Below, piece after piece: positions 1-53,775 of a stretch of 64,000 nucleotides of DNA. The notes under the pieces are model-generated. The model worked only from the letters and a program-made list of their open reading frames with translations. It did no database searches and was not told where the DNA came from. The translations under genes were made by a program, and so were the position numbers. Positions within the stretch are counted from its first letter, which is position 1. Each line of letters opens with the position of its first letter. Location: contig CAYQKV010000001.1 in assembly GCA_964418255.1 (NCBI GenBank), positions 150,901-214,900 on the forward strand, in the 5' to 3' direction. This DNA comes from an uncultured Christensenella sp. Its GTDB lineage: Bacteria > Bacillota > Clostridia > Christensenellales > DTU072.

Positions 1-236
1 AAAAATTTTTTGGCTTCGGGTATTCCGTCAAGCAAACCGTAGTTGCGATAGTCGGTTCCGTTCATTTTTTCTTTAAGCGTTCCGAAAACTTCAAACAAAC
101 CGTCCGACACGTCAAGTTGTTCGGGGTTCGGCTTTCCTCTGCTCATATCGAGTTTCAGATTGAGTTTTTTGTAGGAATCGTATCTTTCTTTTTCCTGTTC
201 GTATATTTTTTTTGCGTTTTCAGGCGTAAATTTCAT
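1..236 (-). CDS. PLP-dependent aminotransferase (class I/II fold), N-terminal 78 codons only; the gene continues past the window start
   Basis: ATG at 236..234 with GAGG 6 nt upstream. Hand translation MKFTPENAKKIYEQEKERYDSYKKLNLKLDMSRGKPNPEQLDVSDGLFEV... stays open to base 1. The LDMSRGKP..QLD signature recalls aspartate-aminotransferase-like enzymes. Confidence 0.5.
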   Translation of the reverse strand, partial: MKFTPENAKKIYEQEKERYDSYKKLNLKLDMSRGKPNPEQLDVSDGLFEVFGTLKEKMNGTDYRNYGLLDGIPEAKKF

Positions 237-252
237 AATATACCTCGTTTAG

Positions 253-1575
253 TTAAATTTCTTCCTTGTCTTTGTTTCTTACTTTAAGATTTATCGGCGT
301 TCCGCTGAAATCGAATGCTTTTCTGAGAGCGTTTTCCAGATATCGTTTATAAGAAAAATGCATTATTTCCTCGTCGTTGACGAATAAAACGAACGTCGGC
401 GGATTAGTCGCCGCTTGCGTAGCGTAATATACTTTGAGTTTTTTTCCGTTACGGGTAGGCGGTTCGTTTACGCTCATCGCGTCCTGCAACACGTCGTTCA
501 GAAGTCCGGTCGTTATCCTTCTCGAAGCGTTTGCATAGACCGCTTCCAGCGCTTCAATCACGTTTCCGACCCTTTGACCCGTCAATGCGCTGATAAACAT
601 AGGTTTATAATAACTCATAAATTTGAGTTCGGCGTCGAGTTTTTCGTTAAATTTGTTTATCGTATAACTGTCCTTAACTACCGCGTCCCACTTATTCATT
701 ATAATGACCGACGGCTTTCTGCTTTCGTGCACAAGTCCGCATATTTTGACGTCCTGTTCGCTCAGTCCTTCCGCCGCGTCGATAACGACCGCAACTACGT
801 CCGCTCTTCTCATCGCGTCGATACTTCTTATAACGCTGTAATACTCGACGTCCTCTTCGACTTTGCTCTTTTTCCTTATTCCCGCGGTGTCGATTATCCG
901 ATAATTTTTATCCCCAATAGCAAACGGCGTGTCTATTGCGTCGCGAGTAGTTCCCGCGATATTGCTGACTATTACACGCTCGAAACCGAGAATTTTATTT
1001 ACAAGGGAACTTTTCCCCGCGTTTGGTTTCCCGACGACGGCGATTTTCAACGCTTCGTCTTCTGCCTCGCTCTCCGCACGCTCGTGAAAATGCGCGACGA
1101 TTGCGTCAAGTAAATCTCCTAAATTAAGGCTGTTTTCCGCAGATACGGGAATAGGTTCGCCCAGCCCCAACGCGTAAAAATCGTAAGCTCCGTACGCCGA
1201 GCCGTTGTCGATTTTGTTTACTGCGAGAACTATCGGTTTTTTCGACATTCTCAACATATCCGCAACGTCGTAGTCGTCGGGCATAATGCCCGTCTTCCCG
1301 TCCACGAAATATAAAATCACGTCCGCAAGGTCTACGGCAAGCTCCGCCTGTCTGCGTATATGCGACCACATTTCGTCTTCGGAATGAATTTCTATACCGC
1401 CCGTGTCCACCATAGTAAAAGTATAGCCGCACCACTCTGCGTCCGCGTATACTCTGTCTCTCGTTACTCCGGGCAAATCCTCTACGATACTGATACGTTT
1501 TCCCGCCATTTTGTTGAAAAACGTGGATTTCCCGACGTTCGGTCTGCCGACAATCGCCACTAATGGTTTAATCAT
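253..1575 (-). CDS. der: Ribosome-associated GTPase Der/EngA (two tandem GTPase domains plus KH-like C-terminus)
   Basis: 440 aa. Two P-loops (GRPNVGKST and GKPNAGKSS), DTGG/DTAG and NKxD motifs. The ATG overlaps the upstream stop (ATGA). Confidence 0.95.
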   Translation of the reverse strand: MIKPLVAIVGRPNVGKSTFFNKMAGKRISIVEDLPGVTRDRVYADAEWCGYTFTMVDTGGIEIHSEDEMWSHIRRQAELAVDLADVILYFVDGKTGIMPDDYDVADMLRMSKKPIVLAVNKIDNGSAYGAYDFYALGLGEPIPVSAENSLNLGDLLDAIVAHFHERAESEAEDEALKIAVVGKPNAGKSSLVNKILGFERVIVSNIAGTTRDAIDTPFAIGDKNYRIIDTAGIRKKSKVEEDVEYYSVIRSIDAMRRADVVAVVIDAAEGLSEQDVKICGLVHESRKPSVIIMNKWDAVVKDSYTINKFNEKLDAELKFMSYYKPMFISALTGQRVGNVIEALEAVYANASRRITTGLLNDVLQDAMSVNEPPTRNGKKLKVYYATQAATNPPTFVLFVNDEEIMHFSYKRYLENALRKAFDFSGTPINLKVRNKDKEEI

Positions 1576-2867
1576 CTCTTTTTACTCCTTCCGCTGACTA
1601 TCGCTTCCAGAAAATCCTCTCCGCCGCAATGGCTTACAACAATTCTTTTCCGTAACTTTTTAGATAATTCTTTAAGCGTAATTCCGTCCAAAAATACGTC
1701 TTCGAACTCTTTAAGCATTACCGACGGTATCATAAGGAAATCTTCTTTGAATGTATTTTTTCCGTATTGCGCAATAATATCCGTCGCCGTAACGAGTCCC
1801 GTGACGGTGACGCTTCTCCCGAAAAAATCGTTTTTTACTACGTAAATATTGATTTGCACGTCGGGATATTTCTCGTTTACCGCGTCGCGCGCCCGTATCA
1901 TACTGCTTTCGCCGCTTACGCCGGTTATTATGCCGATTTTCCGCTTAATTTTCTTGTCGGGCGCAAAAGAAATCGCGTCGTTAAGTTCCGACATAAACTT
2001 CGAAATTACGCCCACTCCGTTTTCTATCTGTTCGTACTGTCCGTAGTATTCCGCGTCTCTTACCGGCAACTCGGCTATCTGATACATTTCGTCGGAACAG
2101 TAACAAAAACTCGGGTGACTCCGATAAAAACTTTCCGTAAGCTCTATCGCGTCTCGCGCCTGTTCTTTGGTAAGAGGGTCAATATGATACTTCCCCTCTC
2201 TGTGTCCCGTCAACCCGACGGGAACAACGGCTACCGTAGATACTCCGAGAGCATAAAGGTCGGCAAGAGATTTTTCAAGCTGTTTACCGTCGTTTATCCC
2301 GCCTACGAGGACTATTTGCGCGTGTATGGTTATCCCCGCTTTTATCAACCTGTCTATAAGCTCGGTTTGCGGCGGGCATTTTTTTATTCCGAGTAAAAAT
2401 TTTCTCACTGCTTCATCCGTAGCGTGAACGGAAACGTAAAGCGGAGAAAGTTTGTAATCTATTATTCGTTGAATATCCGTTTCGGTTAAGTTCGTTCCCG
2501 TTATGTAAGAACCGCTTATAAAACTCAGTCGATAATCGTCGTCTTTAACGTAGAGAGTATCTCTAAGTCCTTTGGGTAGTTGTTTTACAAAACAGAAAAT
2601 ACAGTTATTGTGACATTCTCTCGGTTTGATTTCCACGCTTTCGTCAAATTCAAGCCCGAGGGTATCAAATTCGTTTTCCTTTACGAATTTAACTTTTTTC
2701 TCCTCGCCTCGGCGATATATCGTCAGTTCTCCTTCCGAAAGGCTGTCCGCATATATATAATCGAGAATATCGACAAATTCTCTTCCGCAAAAAGCCTTAA
2801 CTTCGTCTCCGACGAAAACGTTGCCGCGAAGAATACTTTCCGAAAGAATTTTCTTAACAAATGCCAT
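1572..2867 (-). CDS. DUF512-type radical SAM protein (the usual upstream partner of der in Firmicutes)
   Basis: CHNNCIFC radical-SAM cysteine motif. 4-nt overlap with der. I prefer the ATG at 2867; the ORF-track start at 2894 is a TTG nine codons upstream. Confidence 0.75.
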   Translation of the reverse strand: MAFVKKILSESILRGNVFVGDEVKAFCGREFVDILDYIYADSLSEGELTIYRRGEEKKVKFVKENEFDTLGLEFDESVEIKPRECHNNCIFCFVKQLPKGLRDTLYVKDDDYRLSFISGSYITGTNLTETDIQRIIDYKLSPLYVSVHATDEAVRKFLLGIKKCPPQTELIDRLIKAGITIHAQIVLVGGINDGKQLEKSLADLYALGVSTVAVVPVGLTGHREGKYHIDPLTKEQARDAIELTESFYRSHPSFCYCSDEMYQIAELPVRDAEYYGQYEQIENGVGVISKFMSELNDAISFAPDKKIKRKIGIITGVSGESSMIRARDAVNEKYPDVQINIYVVKNDFFGRSVTVTGLVTATDIIAQYGKNTFKEDFLMIPSVMLKEFEDVFLDGITLKELSKKLRKRIVVSHCGGEDFLEAIVSGRSKKR

Positions 2868-2944
2868 ACGCCTATTATCGTATATTTGGCGCAAAATGTC
2901 AAATATTCCCTTGTAAAATAGATATAAAATGTTATAATATAATT

Positions 2945-4606
2945 ATGCCGAACGACGTAATAACTCTTTCCGCAGCGGTAAGCGAATTGAAAACTCTGCT
3001 TACCGGCGGACGAATAGAAAAAATTTATCAACCGGAAACGGACGAAATTACGCTCAGCGTAAAGAATTCCCGTAAATCGAACACGCTTGTCATCAGCGCA
3101 AATCCATCTCATCCGAGAATACATATAACCGCGCAAAAAAAGGAAAATTCCTATACCGCGCCTGCCTTTTGTATGCTTCTCCGAAAACATATTTCCGGCG
3201 GTTTTATCGAAAACGTAGAAATATTCAACTCCGACCGCATAGTCAAAATCACCGTTATCAACAAGAACGAACTTAAAGACTCAAACCGCTTTTTTTTAAT
3301 GGCGGAACTGATGGGAAGATACAGCAACGTAATTCTTACTTCGGAAAATTTCAAAATCATAGACGCGATACGGCGTATCCACTTCGACCAGAGCACTACG
3401 CGCTATATCTTGCCTAATCTCGAATACACGCTCCAACCGAAATCGAGAATATCTCTCGACGAAACGGAAAAATTATCGGAATTTTTCGCAAAAAGCGAAA
3501 TAAATAGCGATTCGCTTATTAAAAACATAAACGGAATAAGTAAAGAAACCGCCAAAGAAATCGCCTCTTCCACTTGCCCGAAAGAAAAATTCTACGAACT
3601 TCTCAATATTAACAATTCGGATACCTATTATCCGTGTTTGAGATACGAAAACGGCGTTCTTAAAGATTATTACGTTTACCCATACGAAACGCTTCGCGGC
3701 GAATTTATAATTTATCCTACGCTTAACGAAGCTCTTGACGCGTTTTACGGTTTGTACGACGGTTCCGAAAGAAAAAAGGCGTCGACCAAAACCGTTACCA
3801 CCGTTCTCAAACGCCTTAAAGCAAAGACCGAACGACGCATTGCCGATAACGAAGCAAAACTCGCGGAATTGGACAAGGCTATGTATTATCAGAAATGCGG
3901 CGAACTGATTTTATCCAATATTTATGCAATAAAACCGCGCGACGTTATTCTTAAATGCATCGACTACTATGAAGATAAGCCCGTCGAAATTTCGCTCGAC
4001 CCGAAACTTACGCCTTCCGACAACGCTCAACAATATTTCAAAAAATACGCAAAGCTTAAACGCGCGGCGGAAATAGCAAAAAATCAGCTTGACGCGCTAA
4101 AAGAACAGCGCGAATATCTCGAATCGGTGGAAGTAAGCATAAGCAACTGTTCTTTGAAATCGGAATACGACGAAATACTCGAAGAGCTTAATTCTTTATC
4201 GGGTTTACGAAATCCGCTTAAAAGGCGCACGCTCAAAGAAAAGCCTACGGGACCGACTCGTTTTACCGTAGAAGGCTATTCCGTTTATTTCGGAAAAAAC
4301 AATCTGCAAAACAACGAAGTTACTTTCTCCGTCGGGGACGGCGGCGACACCTGGTTGCACGTCAAAGCGCACCACGGCGCGCACGTCATAATTAAAGGTA
4401 AACCCCCGCAGGAAGTAATCGAAAAATGCGCCCGCGTCGCCGCCTATTACAGTTCGGCAAAAAATTCGGAAAAAGTCGAAGTCGATTACACATTGAGAAA
4501 GCACGTCAAAAAAATTCCATCGGCGATGCCGGGAATGGTGACATACACAAATTACCGTTCTCTGCTCGTTTCTCCGACGGATTATACAACAATATGCGAC
4601 AAATAA
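2945..4606 (+). CDS. rqcH: RqcH / NFACT-family ribosome quality control protein (fibronectin-binding protein A-like)
   Basis: The N-terminus MPNDVITLSAAVSELKTLLTGGRIEKIYQP..., a coiled-coil middle region and a C-terminal NFACT-R-like region (GDTWLHVKAHHGAHVII) are typical of the family. The ATG at 2945 removes a 28-codon extension that overlaps the divergent gene. Confidence 0.85.
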   Translation: MPNDVITLSAAVSELKTLLTGGRIEKIYQPETDEITLSVKNSRKSNTLVISANPSHPRIHITAQKKENSYTAPAFCMLLRKHISGGFIENVEIFNSDRIVKITVINKNELKDSNRFFLMAELMGRYSNVILTSENFKIIDAIRRIHFDQSTTRYILPNLEYTLQPKSRISLDETEKLSEFFAKSEINSDSLIKNINGISKETAKEIASSTCPKEKFYELLNINNSDTYYPCLRYENGVLKDYYVYPYETLRGEFIIYPTLNEALDAFYGLYDGSERKKASTKTVTTVLKRLKAKTERRIADNEAKLAELDKAMYYQKCGELILSNIYAIKPRDVILKCIDYYEDKPVEISLDPKLTPSDNAQQYFKKYAKLKRAAEIAKNQLDALKEQREYLESVEVSISNCSLKSEYDEILEELNSLSGLRNPLKRRTLKEKPTGPTRFTVEGYSVYFGKNNLQNNEVTFSVGDGGDTWLHVKAHHGAHVIIKGKPPQEVIEKCARVAAYYSSAKNSEKVEVDYTLRKHVKKIPSAMPGMVTYTNYRSLLVSPTDYTTICDK

Positions 4607-17600: not shown

Positions 17601-17675
17601 TGGTGACTCCTAGGAGATTCGAACTCCTGTAGCCGCCGTGAGAGGGCGGAGTCTTAACCGCTTGACCAAGGAGCC
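17601..17675 (-). tRNA. tRNA-Glu, anticodon CUC, CCA encoded
   Basis: Hand-folded cloverleaf: acceptor GGCTCCT/AGGAGTC (one G-U), D-arm GTCAAGCGGTTAAGAC, anticodon stem CCGCC/GGCGG with loop CT-CTC-AC, T-arm AGGAG-TTCGAAT-CTCCT, discriminator A, CCA. Near-identical scaffold to B. subtilis tRNA-Glu(UUC). Confidence 0.9.
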
Positions 17676-22475: not shown

Positions 22476-22690
22476 CTAAACACGCGCAAAGTGGAGAGAT
22501 TGCGTTGATTTTTTTCGTAAGTGAACCGTCGCTGTACTATCGTACAGTAGGTGAAACTTACGGAAAAGTGGAAAAAACTTTAATTTTATCCGCTTTTCAC
22601 AATAATAAGAGGAAAAATTTTTCTTTAATTATTTTCGCATAGCTTTTACGGACGCAAATAAACGCGATATATCCACTCCTAAACACGCGC
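22476..22690 (+). repeat. Copy 1 of a roughly 200-bp TIR-bounded intergenic element (MITE-like), including its flanking direct repeats
   Basis: Direct repeat CTAAACACGCGC at 22476..22487 and 22679..22690. Ends aaAGTGGAGAGATTGCGTTG and CGCGATATATCCACTCC are inverted repeats. Homologous to 51789..52006 in reverse orientation. Confidence 0.7.
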
Positions 22691-22695
22691 TCCGC

Positions 22696-22723
22696 TTGAC
22701 TTTTACTTTTATTTATATATAAT
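22696..22723 (+). promoter_or_regulatory. Sigma-A-type promoter of the RluA-family gene; apparently leaderless
   Basis: TTGACT-16 nt-TATAAT. 8 nt (AAATAAAT, no SD) lie between the -10 and the ATG at 22732. Confidence 0.7.
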
Positions 22724-22731
22724 AAATAAAT

Positions 22732-23469
22732 ATGAAACAAGAATTTACATCGGAAAATTTACAGGTAGTGTACGAAGATAACCATATCATCGCAATAGTT
22801 AAGCCGCAAAACGTTCCGTCGTGCCCCGACGAAACCGGCGATAAGGACGCGCTGAGCACGGTTAAAGATTATCTTATAAAAAAATATAACAAATCCGGAG
22901 ACGCTTACGTCGGACTTATTCATCGTCTCGACCGACCGACCGGCGGAGTAATGGTTTTCGCAAAAACTTCCAAAGCCGCCTCGCGTATGTGCGAAGCTAT
23001 GAAAAACGGCGATTTCGAAAAGCGCTATTTCGCCGTTGTCGTAGGAGTGCCCAGAGAAAAATCCATACTGGGACTTACCAACTATCTTCTCAAAGATTCC
23101 TCTAAAAATATGGTTTACGCCGTCCCTATGGCTACCGAAGGCGCCAAAAAAGCCGTTCTCGATTACACCACTCTCGACGTAAAAGACAATCTTTCGCTTG
23201 TTAGCGTAAAACTTCACACCGGACGCGCGCATCAGATACGCGTACAAATGCAAACTCTCGGACACCCTCTTTTCGGCGACCAGCGTTACGGCGCAAACAA
23301 ATCTCCCGCAGGATACAACCTCGCTTTGTGGGCGGTGGAACTTAAACTTACTCACCCCGTAACCAAAGAACGTATGGTTTTCAGGGTTTATCCCCCCGTC
23401 GACAACGTTCCGTGGAAATTTTTCGACGTGTCGCGCTATCTTTCGATTTCAATTAAAGATAACTATTAA
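22732..23469 (+). CDS. RluA-family pseudouridine synthase (no S4 domain)
   Basis: 245 aa. Catalytic HRLDRPTGGVMVF motif. HTGRAHQIRVQM motif. Confidence 0.88.
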   Translation: MKQEFTSENLQVVYEDNHIIAIVKPQNVPSCPDETGDKDALSTVKDYLIKKYNKSGDAYVGLIHRLDRPTGGVMVFAKTSKAASRMCEAMKNGDFEKRYFAVVVGVPREKSILGLTNYLLKDSSKNMVYAVPMATEGAKKAVLDYTTLDVKDNLSLVSVKLHTGRAHQIRVQMQTLGHPLFGDQRYGANKSPAGYNLALWAVELKLTHPVTKERMVFRVYPPVDNVPWKFFDVSRYLSISIKDNY

Positions 23470-27284: not shown

Positions 27285-27375
27285 GGAGAAATACCCAAGT
27301 GGCTGAAGGGGCTCCCCTGCTAAGGGAGTAGTACGGTGAAACGTAGCTCGGGTTCAAATCCCGATTTCTCCGCCA
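27285..27375 (+). tRNA. tRNA-Ser, anticodon GCU, long variable arm, CCA encoded
   Basis: Acceptor GGAGAAA/TTTCTCC, anticodon stem CTCCC/GGGAG with loop CT-GCT-AA, variable arm GTAGTACGGTGAAACGTAGC, T-arm TCGGG-TTCAAAT-CCCGA, discriminator G, CCA. Confidence 0.9.
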
Positions 27376-32518: not shown

Positions 32519-34096
32519 CTATTCCGCTTTGGGACCGGCTTTAACAACTTCTTCGGACATATGCGTATATTTCTTGAAGTTGTTGATAAATCTTCCCGCA
32601 AGGTCTTTTGCCGTCGCTTCGTATTCTTTTTTATCCTTCCATACGTTTTCGGGAACCATTATTTCCGAAGGAACGCCCTCGATGTCGACGGGGATTTCCA
32701 CTCCGAAATACGGGTCTTTAACGAATTTGCTCTTTTCGATGCTTCCGTTAAGCGCGGCGGTAACCATTGCTCTCGTATATTTCAGTTTCATTCTGCCGAC
32801 CGTTCCCGCTTTGCCTCCGCACCAACCGGTGTTGACGAGGTAAACGTTCGCTCCCGTCTTTTCGATTTTTTCTTTGAGCATTTCAGCATAAAGACTGGGG
32901 TCGAGGGGAAGGAACGGCGCGCCGAAACAGGTCGAGAACGTAGGAACGGGCTCGGTTATTCCTCTCTCGGTTCCCGCAAGTTTGCTCGTAAATCCGCTTA
33001 CGAAATAATACATCGCCTGGTTCTTGTCGAGTTTGCTGATAGGAGGCAGAACTCCGAACGCGTCCGCGGTAAGGAAGATAACGGTCTTAGGCGTGCTTCC
33101 TATTCCGGGAATAGCCGCGTTGGGAATGTATTCGATAGGATAACCTACTCTCGTATTTTCGGTATATCTGCCGTCGTCGAAATCCATTTCTCTCGTTTCG
33201 TCGTCCATAACTACGTTTTCGACCAGACTTCCGAACTTGATGGCGTTCCAGATTTCGGGTTCGTTTTCCTCTTTGAGGTTTATACATTTAGCATAGCAGC
33301 CGCCTTCGAAGTTGAATACGGTATCATCCGACCAACCGTGTTCGTCGTCGCCGATAAGTTTTCTCGCAGGGTCCGCGCTGAGCGTGGTTTTACCCGTTCC
33401 GCTGAGTCCGAAGAATACCGCGCTGTCCCCGTTGTCGCCTATGTTCGCCGAACAGTGCATCGGGAAAACGCCTTCCTTTGGCATAAGATAGTTCATAACC
33501 GAGAACACGCTCTTTTTGATTTCTCCCGCGTACTGGCTTCCCGCAATGAGAACGAGTTTCTTTTCATAGTCGATTATAATTGCGGCTTCGCTGTTTACGC
33601 CGTCACGTTCGGGAATGCACTTGAATCCGGGCGCGGCGATAATCGTAAAGTCTTCTTCGAAGCCTTCGAGCTGTTCCGCGGTGGGTCTTATAAGAAGCTG
33701 ATGAATAAACAGGTTCTGCGAAGCGAGTTCGTTCACTATTCTGAAACGCTTTGTATGCGCGGGGTCTGCGCCTGCAAAACCGTCGAAAATGAATATTTCT
33801 CTGTTTTGAAGATACGCAATCATTTTGTCATATATCGCGTCGAATTTTTCCTGAGAAATAGGCACGTTTACCTTTCCCCACGCAATTTCGTCGTGAACGC
33901 CCTTGCTGTCCACGATAAACTTATCGTTGGGGGAACGTCCTGTATATTTTCCCGTCAAAACGACGAGCGCGCCTTTATTATTGAGTTTACCCTCTCCTCT
34001 TTCAAGAGCCTTTTCCACGAGAACGGCGGGCGAAAGATTGCGATAAACGGCTTTGGCGTTTATTATGCCGAGCTTTTCGATTCCGTAAGTATTCAT
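32519..34096 (-). CDS. pckA: Phosphoenolpyruvate carboxykinase (ATP)
   Basis: 525 aa. GRSPNDKF, the kinase-1a GLSGTGKTTLS motif and a C-terminal nucleotide-binding region. GGAGG RBS. Confidence 0.95.
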   Translation of the reverse strand: MNTYGIEKLGIINAKAVYRNLSPAVLVEKALERGEGKLNNKGALVVLTGKYTGRSPNDKFIVDSKGVHDEIAWGKVNVPISQEKFDAIYDKMIAYLQNREIFIFDGFAGADPAHTKRFRIVNELASQNLFIHQLLIRPTAEQLEGFEEDFTIIAAPGFKCIPERDGVNSEAAIIIDYEKKLVLIAGSQYAGEIKKSVFSVMNYLMPKEGVFPMHCSANIGDNGDSAVFFGLSGTGKTTLSADPARKLIGDDEHGWSDDTVFNFEGGCYAKCINLKEENEPEIWNAIKFGSLVENVVMDDETREMDFDDGRYTENTRVGYPIEYIPNAAIPGIGSTPKTVIFLTADAFGVLPPISKLDKNQAMYYFVSGFTSKLAGTERGITEPVPTFSTCFGAPFLPLDPSLYAEMLKEKIEKTGANVYLVNTGWCGGKAGTVGRMKLKYTRAMVTAALNGSIEKSKFVKDPYFGVEIPVDIEGVPSEIMVPENVWKDKKEYEATAKDLAGRFINNFKKYTHMSEEVVKAGPKAE

Positions 34097-50743: not shown

Positions 50744-51720
50744 ACGTTCACTCCGTCCGGAATAAATAATTTTTTCGCTAATCCTATAGCGTAAGTATCG
50801 CTCATCGACGCGAGATAGTCGCACACGAACGTCGTCACGTCGGTAACGCACTCGGGGTGCGGAACTTCGTCGGGGTGAGTGATAAAGTATTTGAAAAGCA
50901 TATTGAGCATTCTGTCCGCTTTGCGCTGCAAGACTTCGCCGTTGCTGGTAAAATAAACCCTCTCAAACATAAAATCTCTGAGTTTATTCATATAGTATGA
51001 ACCTTCGTCGCTCAAAGAAATTTTATTTTTTTCATAGCTGTGCTCGACTATATCTTTTACGAGCGTGTTAATTCTGTCGCCTTTGGTCTTTCCGAGGTAT
51101 TCCACGCAATCGCGCGGCAAATCCTCTTCGCCTATTACTCCCGCTCTTACCGCGTCGCTTATATCGTGGTTTATGTATGCGATTCTGTCGGCGTATGAAA
51201 CAACCTTTCCTTCGAGAGTACAGGGATTTCCGCTGCTCTTATGTTCGAGTATGCCGTCTCTCACTTCGTAAGTAAGGTTGAGCCCTTTGCCGTCGTTTTC
51301 AAGTAAATCTACTACGCGAAGGCTTTGCTCGTTATGATAAAAATGCCCCGTAAGCGCGTTTAAGACGCGTTCGCCCGCGTGTCCGAAAGGCGTATGTCCG
51401 AGGTCGTGCCCGAGCCCTATCGCTTCGGTCAAATCCTCGTTGAGTAAAAGCGCGCGCGAAATCGTCCTCGCAATCTGCGTAACTTCAAGCGTATGTGTAA
51501 GTCGGGTACGAAAATGGTCGTCGAGCGGGCAAAGAAAAACCTGCGTTTTGTGTTTCAGCCGACGGAACGCCTTACAATGAATTATTCTGTCTCTGTCGCG
51601 CTGGTACTCCGTTCTATACGGACAAGGCTCGATTTCCGTCTGTCTCCCTCGCGTTTCTTCGCTCTTCTGCGCATACGGACTGAGAAATTTCCGTTCATAC
51701 TCTAATTGATGCTCTTTCAT
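50740..51720 (-). CDS. dGTPase-like HD-domain deoxynucleoside triphosphate triphosphohydrolase
   Basis: HD motif (RLTHTLEV...HDLGHTPFGH). I prefer the ATG at 51720 (GGGAGG upstream). An alternative ATG at 51744 lies 8 nt after a TATAAT box. Confidence 0.8.
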   Translation of the reverse strand: MKEHQLEYERKFLSPYAQKSEETRGRQTEIEPCPYRTEYQRDRDRIIHCKAFRRLKHKTQVFLCPLDDHFRTRLTHTLEVTQIARTISRALLLNEDLTEAIGLGHDLGHTPFGHAGERVLNALTGHFYHNEQSLRVVDLLENDGKGLNLTYEVRDGILEHKSSGNPCTLEGKVVSYADRIAYINHDISDAVRAGVIGEEDLPRDCVEYLGKTKGDRINTLVKDIVEHSYEKNKISLSDEGSYYMNKLRDFMFERVYFTSNGEVLQRKADRMLNMLFKYFITHPDEVPHPECVTDVTTFVCDYLASMSDTYAIGLAKKLFIPDGVNV

Positions 51721-51752
51721 TCCGCCTCCCGTCCGCAAATTCATTTTTATTG

Positions 51753-51781
51753 ATTATACCAAATACGCCGTCTTTTTTCAA
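51753..51781 (-). promoter_or_regulatory. Sigma-A-type promoter of the dgt-like/pcrA/ligA unit
   Basis: Minus strand TTGAAA-17 nt-TATAAT. Confidence 0.7.
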
Positions 51782-51788
51782 GCGAATA

Positions 51789-52006
51789 TCACTCTTTAGG
51801 AGTGGATATATCGCGTTGCTTTACGCCCGTAAAAACATATATAAACTAATTCAAAAAGAGCGTTTTTTTTGCCAATATTGCAAATAAGCGGATGAAAATC
51901 ATAGTTTTTATGGGCTTTTCCGTAAGTTTCACCTACCGTACGTCGGTACGGCGACGGTTCACTTACGAAAAAAATCAACGCAATCTCTCCACTCCGTCGC
52001 TCTTTA
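51789..52006 (-). repeat. Copy 2 of the TIR-bounded intergenic element (reverse orientation), including its flanking direct repeats
   Basis: Direct repeats TCACTCTTTA (51789..51798) and TCGCTCTTTA (51997..52006). Ends GGAGTGGATATATCGCG (51799..51815) and CGCAATCTCTCCACTCC (51979..51995). A 79-nt block differs from copy 1 at only 5 positions. Confidence 0.7.
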
Positions 52007-52044: not shown

Positions 52045-52073
52045 AAAAAAGGTTCTCTTTCGAGAACCTTTTT
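52045..52073. terminator. Bidirectional-looking intrinsic terminator after the trpB-like gene
   Basis: AAAAAAGGTTCTC-tttc-GAGAACCTTTTT. Confidence 0.85.
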
Positions 52074-52092: not shown

Positions 52093-53484
52093 TTAGTTGT
52101 ATAAACTGTTTTGCGGAATGTCGGGCAACTGAGCGATTGACTTAGCCAAATCTTCGTCGGTGGGGATATAGTCCGTCATCGTTCCGTCGTTAAACGATTT
52201 GTATGCGGTCAGGTCGAAATAACCCGTTCCCGTCAAACCGAAGAGAATAACTTTCTTTTCGCCCGTTTCTTTACATTTCAACGCTTCGTCCATAGCGACC
52301 TTGATAGCGTGCGCGCTTTCCGGCGCGGGGAAAATTCCTTCGCATTTAGTGAATTTTTCCGCAGCTTCGAAGACTTTTGTCTGCTCTACCGAAGTAGCTT
52401 CCATATATCCGTCGTGATAGAGTTTACTGAGTATCGGGCTCATCCCGTGGTATCTAAGTCCACCCGCGTGATTGGAAGAAGGCATAAAGTTACTTCCGAG
52501 GGTGTACATCTTTGCAAGAGGAGTCATTTTGCCCGTATCGCAGAAGTCGTATTTATAAACGCCTCTCGTGAGAGAAGGACAACTTGCGGGTTCTACCGCA
52601 ATGAATTTGTAATCCGCCTCTCCTCTGAGTTTTTCACCCATAAACGGCGCAATCAGACCGCCGAGGTTGCTTCCGCCTCCCGCGCAACCGATTATAATAT
52701 CGGGTTTAACGCCGTATTTATCCAACGCGACTTTGCTTTCGAGACCGATAATGCTCTGATGCAACACGACCTGGTCGAGCACGCTGCCGAGGACGTAACG
52801 GGAATTCGGCACGCTCAGAGCACATTCAACCGCTTCGCTTATCGCGCAACCGAGACTTCCGCCCGTTCCGGGGAATTCTTCGAGAATTTTTCTTCCCACG
52901 TTTGTCGTATTGCTCGGGCTGGGCACCACGTTTGCTCCGTAAGTTCTCATAACCTCTTTTCTGAAAGGTTTCTGCTCGCTGCTCACCTTAACCATAAAGA
53001 CGTCGAGGGGAATTTTGTAGAACGCGCACGCCATAGACAGCGCGGTTCCCCACTGTCCGGCGCCGGTTTCTGTCGTGAGGTGGGTAATTCCCTGTTCTTT
53101 TGCGTAGTAAACCTGCGCTATTGCCGAATTGAGTTTATGCGAACCCGAAGTGTTGTTTCCCTCGAATTTATAATAAATTTCCGCGGGAGTATCGAGTTCT
53201 TTTTCCAACCAATACGCTCTTACGAGTGGCGACGGACGGAACATTTTATAAAAATCTCTGATTCCTTCGGGTATTTCTATATACTGCGTCGTCTGGTCGA
53301 GTTCCTGTTTTATCAATTCGTCGCAGAAAACGGGTCTGAGGTCGTCCGCGGTAGCCGGTTGAAGGGTAGCGGGGTTAAGATAAGGCGCGTGTTTATCTTT
53401 CATATCCGCTCTGAGGTTATACCAACATTTAGGCAATTCCTGTTCCGATAAGTAAATCTTTGTAGGAATGTTCTTCTGTTTCAT
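52093..53484 (-). CDS. trpB: TrpB-like PLP enzyme (tryptophan synthase beta chain, long TrpB2-type form), stand-alone
   Basis: 463 aa. PLP-lysine region GNNTSGSHKLNSA, GAGQWG and GCAGGGSNLGG motifs. The long N-terminal extension is typical of TrpB2. Preceded by a Trp T-box. Confidence 0.85.
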   Translation of the reverse strand: MKQKNIPTKIYLSEQELPKCWYNLRADMKDKHAPYLNPATLQPATADDLRPVFCDELIKQELDQTTQYIEIPEGIRDFYKMFRPSPLVRAYWLEKELDTPAEIYYKFEGNNTSGSHKLNSAIAQVYYAKEQGITHLTTETGAGQWGTALSMACAFYKIPLDVFMVKVSSEQKPFRKEVMRTYGANVVPSPSNTTNVGRKILEEFPGTGGSLGCAISEAVECALSVPNSRYVLGSVLDQVVLHQSIIGLESKVALDKYGVKPDIIIGCAGGGSNLGGLIAPFMGEKLRGEADYKFIAVEPASCPSLTRGVYKYDFCDTGKMTPLAKMYTLGSNFMPSSNHAGGLRYHGMSPILSKLYHDGYMEATSVEQTKVFEAAEKFTKCEGIFPAPESAHAIKVAMDEALKCKETGEKKVILFGLTGTGYFDLTAYKSFNDGTMTDYIPTDEDLAKSIAQLPDIPQNSLYN

Positions 53485-53513: not shown

Positions 53514-53760
53514 AAAAAACGGTGAACTCGCTTTGGGACGAATTCACCGTGTTGCCACCCAATTTCATAACCTGTTAAAGCTACCTCTTTACTCGATACT
53601 ATCATATCGATTCCCTGTTACGTCGGAACCACGTCGGAAACTACTCGAATTCTTTCGCCCCCGCCCTCAATAGTCCATTCGGCATATCTCCGCTATTTCG
53701 TCGCACCAACCCGAAACTCTCTGAAAACCTCGAAACGCTTACTACTCTATCTCAACGGTT
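53514..53760 (-). promoter_or_regulatory. T-box riboswitch leader, specifier UGG (Trp), with terminator/antiterminator
   Basis: Minus strand elements: AGTA, the AGAGA box (CAGAGAGT), distal GGTGCGA, specifier loop GAA-TGG-A (TGG = 53677..53675), the T-box sequence AAATTGGGTGGCAACACGG (53569..53551), and the terminator ACGGTGAATTCG...CGAGTTCACCGT plus TTTTTT (53550..53514). Confidence 0.85.
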
Positions 53761-53775
53761 TATTAAGTTATTTTT

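Follow-up and report, generated by a model that had tools for sequence, protein, structure and literature searches.

Bacterial MITEs, among them the Correia elements of Neisseria, RUP of Streptococcus pneumoniae, Bcr1 of the Bacillus cereus group and MITEAba12 of Acinetobacter, measure 100–300 bp, have no coding capacity and are bounded by terminal inverted repeats and target-site duplications. They reside in intergenic DNA near genes, are predicted to form a long hairpin by pairing of their ends and are present in some genomes and absent from related ones. The element described here, which was found in a 64,000-nt stretch of DNA from an uncultured Christensenella species (hereafter the window), shares these traits. 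It differs from the known families in several respects. Judged by the family descriptions known to us, there is no sequence similarity to Correia, RUP, Bcr1 or MITEAba12, and the duplication is 11 bp long as against TA in Correia and RUP and 9 bp in MITEAba12, Bcr1 having TTTAT as its target. By the same descriptions, the initial annotation of this DNA was right to keep the element apart from BOX, RUP, REP and Bcr1: sequence similarity is lacking and the duplication is different. Known bacterial MITEs are found in tens to hundreds of copies, compared with three known copies in the present case, and, unlike them, this element has asymmetric conserved ends and a fixed distance to a promoter.

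Among insertion sequences, 11 bp is an uncommon duplication length across the family tables. The target duplications of the IS4 family are typically ∼10–13 bp, and its member IS231 has given rise to non-autonomous derivatives in Firmicutes (MIC231). The 11-bp duplication of the element fits the IS4 range, and it is the only trait that does so: the ends of IS4 and IS231, as we know them, start with CA(T) as against GGAGTGG here. With such termini and with no IS4-type transposase found, an IS4/IS231-derived cassette is not supported. To our knowledge, no IS family has GGAGTGG termini. REP/BIME sequences and IS200/IS605-derived palindromes are 20–40 nt long and display neither terminal repeats nor duplication; they do not correspond to an element with 20-bp terminal inverted repeats and 11-bp duplications.

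A different set of systems integrates at a fixed distance from a genomic feature. These include Tn7, directed by TnsD to attTn7, and Ty3 and the Dictyostelium TRE5-A element, which insert at Pol III genes; in addition, IS30 and IS911 insert beside sequences that resemble their own repeats. Their likeness to the element in the window is an analogy of mechanism only: orientation is specific, the distance is constant (within 1 nt) and the feature is left intact. Unlike the situation in Tn7, Ty3, TRE5-A, IS30 and IS911, the feature is here an ordinary housekeeping −35/−10 promoter, at three unrelated genes and in three cases. Among the bacterial transposons described so far, we know of none whose integration keeps a constant distance to ordinary promoters; nor do we know of a tethering protein for this element.

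The element is likely to be one copy of a MITE, a non-coding remnant of ∼195 bp in which only the ends of a DNA transposon survive. Five properties that define MITEs are observed: terminal inverted repeats that sit at the exact ends, a duplication that is constant in length and varied in sequence across the two full copies, a small size (192 and 197 nt), no coding capacity, and variable occurrence across genomes, with empty sites at both loci in several relatives. The initial annotation had proposed a MITE-like non-autonomous element, and both the empty orthologous sites and the different 11-bp repeat at each full copy lend support to this proposal. The family, set apart from the named ones by their descriptions as known to us, is undescribed. 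As MITEs go, the element is unremarkable, its contribution being one new family from Christensenellales, gut bacteria that are uncultured and little studied. Selfish DNA of the ordinary kind, it stands out only by the position of all three copies relative to promoters. The interest of the element rests mainly on this position, which is fixed and oriented beside three unrelated, pre-existing, near-consensus promoters.

Anatomy of the Two Complete Copies

A 12-nt direct repeat, CTAAACACGCGC, had been reported at 22476–22487 and 22679–22690, and it is indeed present and exact at both places. Its interpretation as a target-site duplication stands as far as the duplication is concerned; the length does not, and is best read as 11 bp (TAAACACGCGC) because the C that precedes the right-hand repeat forms the final base of the terminus ...CCACTCC, shared by copy 2. 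The longer repeat includes one extra C, at 22476. The termini of copy 1, AAAGTGGAGAGATTGCGTTG on the left and AACGCGATATATCCACTCC on the right, are as originally described. In both copies the terminal inverted repeats, ∼20 bp long, can be written as GGAGTGGAGAGATTGCGTTG and GGAGTGGATATATCGCGTTG, with GGAGTGGA... as the terminal motif of the element ends and ...ATATATCCACTCC as the terminus common to both copies. Copy 2 starts with GGAGTGG, and copy 1 opens with AA where copy 2 carries its terminal GG. The inverted repeats match at 18/24 positions in copy 1 and at 20/24 in copy 2, where 17 of the first 20 positions pair, the figure given in the initial annotation.

The diverged second copy, in the opposite orientation, had also been correctly recognized (Table 1). 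The two copies are 81.5% identical over 200 nt (E = 5e-46). A block of 45 nt at the left end (GGAGTGGAGAGATTGCGTTGATTTTTTTCGTAAGTGAACCGTCGC) and another of 23 nt at the right end (AACGCGATATATCCACTCCTAAA) are identical in copies 1 and 2, whereas the AT-rich middle is far more diverged and contains small indels. Identical ends around a diverged middle are the pattern expected where mobilization needs the ends only. The conserved ends are asymmetric, extending over 83 nt on the left as against ∼25–40 nt on the right. A degenerate inverted-repeat pattern occurs four times in the window, at both ends of both copies, compared with 0.1 occurrences expected by shuffling. The motif RGTGRA is present 4–5 times per element (0.25 expected), and these sites could be bound by a transposase.

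Copy 2 is flanked by direct repeats as well, which are absent from the initial annotation. Its two flanks, TAAAGAGCGAC and TAAAGAGTGAT, match at 9/11 positions; the chance of a match of at least 9/11 at fixed spacing is ∼1e-4 analytically and 3.5e-4 when determined empirically in the window. The flanking repeats of copies 1 and 2 have the same length, 11 bp, differ at 5/11 positions and both start with TAAA. Being equal in length and unlike in sequence, they correspond to a target-site duplication and not to the core site of a recombinase. An attachment-site remnant of an integrated element was considered and rejected, since the flanking repeats differ between copies.

Table 1. Features of the element and of the adjoining promoters; positions refer to the window
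Feature	Position	Strand	Remarks
Copy 1, left target-site duplication (best reading), TAAACACGCGC	22477..22487	+	11/11 identity to 22680–22690
Copy 1 of the element	22488..22679	+	192 nt, non-coding; 81.5% identity to copy 2
Copy 1, left terminal inverted repeat, AAAGTGGAGAGATTGCGTTG	22488..22507	+	Tip AA instead of GG
Copy 1, predicted left-end hairpin	22510..22568	+	13 + 3 + 7 bp, GA-rich internal loops
Copy 1, right terminal inverted repeat	22660..22679	−	GGAGTGGATATATCGCGTTT on minus strand
Copy 1, right target-site duplication (best reading), TAAACACGCGC	22680..22690	+	
Promoter of the RluA-family gene, pre-existing	22696..22723	+	TTGACT, 16-nt spacer, TATAAT; 11/12 consensus; end of copy 1 lies 16 nt upstream of −35
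Promoter of the dGTPase gene, pre-existing	51753..51781	−	TTGAAA, 17-nt spacer, TG-TATAAT; 11/12 consensus; end of copy 2 lies 17 nt upstream of −35
Copy 2, right target-site duplication, TAAAGAGTGAT	51788..51798	−	
Copy 2 of the element	51799..51995	−	197 nt
Copy 2, sub-parts	left inverted repeat 51995–51976, hairpin 51973–51915, right inverted repeat 51818–51799	−	
Copy 2, left target-site duplication, TAAAGAGCGAC	51996..52006	−	9/11 match to 51798–51788
Promoter of the HTH-cupin regulator gene	downstream of copy 3	same as copy 3	TTGATT, 17-nt spacer, TATAAT; 10/12 consensus; gap to −35 of 16 nt

Empty Sites in Related Genomes

At the locus of copy 1, relatives whose RluA protein is 77–83% identical share the gene order ABC-operon gene, RluA, Spo0A. 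Their intergenic region spans 156–162 nt compared with 358 nt in the window. When 22488–22690, that is the element and one repeat, is removed from the window, 183 nt are left, which align end to end with 184–190 nt of the relatives, and the alignment takes in the conserved divergent promoters. Copy 1 is missing from the orthologous intergenic region of L026, L028, L030 and L031. With regard to the affiliation of the window, Spo0A is among the neighbouring genes and homologues of the window proteins are labelled Clostridia or Christensenellales by their sources.

At the locus of copy 2, the region upstream of the dGTPase gene is devoid of the element in L032, L036 and L059. L032 displays the same PALP–dGTPase order, the two proteins being 88% and 91% identical respectively, and its intergenic region measures 195 nt compared with 372 nt in the window. 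L059, with a dGTPase that is 95% identical, keeps GATATTCGCTTGAAAAAAG and ...GGATAGGGATATTCGCTTGAAAAAAG... and has no element. In L036 and L037 (dGTPase 85% identical) the element is likewise missing. Empty orthologous sites, which the initial annotation had put forward as a check, are thus found at both loci, so that both full copies must have been inserted in this species alone.

Within the species, copy 1 has been found in at least five independent assemblies (ENA, Logan). A strain variant (L001, 2757–2948) differs from the window at 4/192 element positions, corresponding to 97.9% identity, and its flanking duplication is intact. Two of the four changes break pairs at the tip of the left-end hairpin (GTACAG to GCACTG).

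A Third Copy

A partial third copy is located ∼3 kb past the right end of the window, at the start of the same-species contigs L054–L057. The right-hand 115 nt are seen and are 79–82% identical to copies 1 and 2; the terminus reads ...AAACGTGATATATCCACTCT and lies upstream of a gene for an HTH-cupin regulator. All available contigs break inside copy 3, whose left junction is expected to repeat TTTACCATTTT. Short-read contigs repeatedly begin or stop inside the element, which is the expected effect of a sequence that the genome carries more than once, and the element therefore explains the contig breaks at these places in this species.

The three known copies belong to one species, in ∼78 kb of whose sequence they were found, and are a small number for a MITE family. 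In ∼273 kb from the species and related genomes, neither nhmmer with all filters off nor a covariance model built on the 83-nt left end detected a further copy, and profile and covariance-model searches of ∼200 kb of relatives returned no copies.

Position Relative to Promoters

The three insertions are independent and point the same way: each copy ends a short way upstream of a near-consensus −35 box (16, 17 and 16 nt, respectively), the promoters being scored against a sigma-70-type consensus. The RluA promoter is conserved in element-free relatives, and GCTTGAAAAAAG of the dGTPase promoter is conserved in L032 and L059. Because relatives without the element have the promoters next to copies 1 and 2 as well, the element landed beside existing promoters and did not bring them. 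Such positions are scarce: only 14 intergenic sites in the window reach a consensus match of at least 10/12, and only 0.16% of the intergenic positions and orientations in the window lie 16–17 nt upstream of a promoter of this kind. The 16–17 nt criterion was chosen after seeing the data, and three out of three is still far from chance. The promoter is the only sequence that the three targets have in common. The left repeat contains TTGATTTTTTT, beginning 17 nt in from the tip; in the targets TTGA(C/A/T) begins 16–17 nt from the junction, mirroring this offset.

The fixed, oriented position suggests promoter-directed insertion or selection. Targeted integration is preferred here because the 1-nt spread looks like a mechanical outcome, even though three copies cannot separate the two. 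It is conceivable, if somewhat less than an even prospect, that this transposon family integrates by design beside housekeeping promoters, in one orientation and with its right end 16–17 bp upstream of the −35 box (∼−52). To find its sites it would either recognize promoter DNA that resembles its own inner repeat or be tethered to promoter-bound RNA polymerase. If the position does reflect an integration mechanism, the element would be a bacterial counterpart of eukaryotic promoter- or Pol III-tethered integration and would offer a ready-made natural means of inserting DNA at a set point upstream of promoters.

If selection is responsible instead, the element would be a MITE recruited as a promoter-proximal module: mobile in origin, its three copies would have been kept for their action on the adjacent promoter. 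The right inverted repeat, centred near −61, could for example bind an activator or a repressor, or the element could insulate the promoter. The identical orientation of the three copies and their equal distance to a strong promoter would be accounted for in this way, as would the fixation of the copies in every sampled strain and the identity of the ends in copies 1 and 2. Retention by selection is nonetheless rather improbable. An RluA-family synthase, a dGTPase and an HTH-cupin regulator make up no obvious regulon. Between strains the element differs at 4/192 positions and the flanks at ∼6/109, which reveals no clear purifying selection, and half of the element changes disrupt the hairpin. 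Moreover, a regulatory function would tolerate shifts by whole helical turns, whereas a spread of 1 nt is more like a mechanical outcome. With regard to its effect on the host, the element in place looks like a neutral passenger; it could alter promoter strength, as the DNA from ∼−52 upstream is replaced.

Two features of the downstream genes may be recorded. At the RluA-family gene (22718–22734, +), the −10 box ends only 8 nt before the ATG, a layout that is the same in relatives, and the mRNA may be leaderless or nearly so. The 334-aa ORF of the dGTPase contains a second ATG at 51720 (−), which gives 326 aa and is preceded by GGGAGGCGGA (51720–51744). The homologues are 324–327 aa long and cover 96–98% of the 334-aa ORF, and the second ATG is probably the start.

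Folding and Coding Potential

In comparison with shuffled sequences, the whole-element fold attains z-scores of −6.7 and −6.8. The 59-nt left-end hairpin reaches z = −6.2 in copy 1 and −4.9 in copy 2, and the remaining 89–94 nt, comprising the middle and the right-hand part, are no better than shuffles (z ∼0). The strong predicted fold stems only from the paired terminal repeats and one left-end hairpin. The sense strand is 7–11 kcal/mol more stable than the antisense strand, and the comparison of copy 1 with copy 2 discloses one compensatory pair at the hairpin tip, U-A to C-G.

The whole-element z-scores, the compensatory pair and the greater stability of the sense strand speak for a duplicated structured non-coding RNA gene or cis-regulatory RNA, in which the paired ends would serve as a closing stem. 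Such an origin is nevertheless highly unlikely. A search of Rfam 15 with both copies gave no match at the gathering threshold, and a permissive search (E up to 10) returned best E values of 0.64 and 0.16 for unrelated families, whose scores remained far below threshold. The element is situated upstream of the promoter and not in the 5′ UTR, and a consensus scan inside it revealed neither a promoter nor a terminator of its own. Outside the inverted repeats and the single hairpin the fold signal vanishes, the strain variant carries two hairpin-breaking changes, and the element is missing in close relatives and flanked by duplications. The structured cis-acting module that the initial annotation had kept as an option loses its footing for the same reasons: no Rfam match, a fold close to that of shuffles beyond the repeats and hairpin, and the changes in the strain. 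Among specific candidates, a 6S-like or other closed-stem RNA was rejected, as was a riboswitch or leader RNA, which would have to lie downstream of the promoter and not upstream of it. We take the hairpin to be a cis feature inherited from the end of the parent transposon, and do not regard it as a sign of an RNA gene. A constraint beyond simple repeat recognition is hinted at by the conserved left end of 83 nt and by the compensatory pair.

A protein-coding mini-gene was likewise rejected, because copies 1 and 2 do not share a conserved reading frame. A spurious 73-aa ORF over copy 2, which has no true homologue, served as a proxy for copies translated by gene callers elsewhere and revealed none among called proteins: it matches only itself in a word-indexed protein search. 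An exhaustive search adds two giant repetitive proteins, aligned through 128 and 33 separate short stretches, and we read both matches as spurious.

Search for a Transposase and Proposed Mode of Insertion

The initial annotation had stated that the window is free of mobility genes, and this holds as far as tested: neither transposase nor integrase was detected by precomputed Pfam annotation of the same or syntenic genes or by Pfam scans of unannotated ORFs. The annotated genes are housekeeping genes only, and the ORFs left unannotated turned out to be PEPCK, RsmB, a Big_3 protein and conserved unknowns. Neither a transposase nor an autonomous element with the same repeats was found in ∼273 kb of this and related genomes. 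Copy 1 produced no blastn match in phage and plasmid collections, and three exact patterns (left repeat, right repeat and hairpin core) yielded 0 matches in viral contigs. The degenerate repeat pattern GGAGTGGAKAKATYGCGTT gave 19 single matches in 185,579 representative genomes and 13 in JGI metagenomes, none of them paired or beside a transposase. The matches outside this species are consistent with chance. An autonomous partner was therefore not encountered in the genome, metagenome or viral scans, which required an exact match, to 19 nt in the case of the degenerate pattern, and would miss diverged ends such as that of copy 3, so that a diverged partner may have escaped them. Literature on the repeat sequence and on bacterial MITEs with 11-bp duplications offered nothing relevant.

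In two sequences, L009 (a Christensenella MAG) and L039, the GGAGTGGAKAKATYGCGTT match continues into an element-like T-rich run, with no second end within three mismatches and no transposase nearby; L039 was dropped. In L009 the region 521–576, just after the stop codon of rdgB/Ham1, reads GGAGTGGATAGATTGCGTTTTATTTTTTTTAAGT...TCCGCTCC and resembles the left repeat and T-run, with a near-complement of the tip at its end. This region could be a heavily deleted relative or due to chance, and is a weak lead.

Judging from the arrangement of repeats and duplications, insertion may be envisaged as follows. A transposase made elsewhere would bind the 20-bp terminal inverted repeats and probably also the conserved 83-nt left end with its extra AGTGRA motifs and hairpin. 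The element would be joined to target DNA cut with an 11-bp stagger, and repair of the stagger would generate the 11-bp duplication. Our preferred reason for the choice of site is that the DNA-binding domain of the transposase would recognize promoter-like DNA similar to the inner stretch of its own repeat. Mobility by a non-DDE route, through either a site-specific recombinase whose core site becomes the flanking repeat or reverse transcription with variable duplications, can be largely discounted: the TAAA at the start of both duplications, the lack of a DDE partner in the searched collections and the large, asymmetric left end with its hairpin would accord with it, but the flanking repeats differ at 5/11 positions, unlike a recombinase core site, the constant 11 bp and the repeats starting exactly at the junctions are marks of staggered-cut transposition, and neither end bears a poly-A or other tail.

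Other Features of the Neighbourhood

The PALP-family gene next to copy 2 (463 aa, 52093–53484) is preceded by a T-box leader at 53531–53764 (−), which scores 113 bits against a threshold of 93, and is followed by a terminator at 52046–52073, just before copy 2. A gene for PEP carboxykinase (32519–34096, −; Pfam E = 6e-223) is situated between the gene for the 118-aa Big_3 protein and obg. L026 and L030 have no gene at this position, which constitutes a second gene-content difference from relatives. In the JGI relatives L036 and L037, the first 4500 nt (1–4500), upstream of the MFS and dGTPase genes, accommodate small ORFs of unknown function together with PcfJ and a MutS_I-domain protein. This block differs between the two samples and is probably a mobile island. 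Two tRNA genes, at 17604–17675 (−) and 27285–27372 (+), the second with a long variable arm, are present in the window, neither adjoining a copy of the element. A large bacterial SRP RNA (L051, 15422–15685; 164 bits) is found ∼4 kb to the left of the window start, in a 500-nt gap between hflX and an M3 peptidase gene at which one Logan contig breaks.
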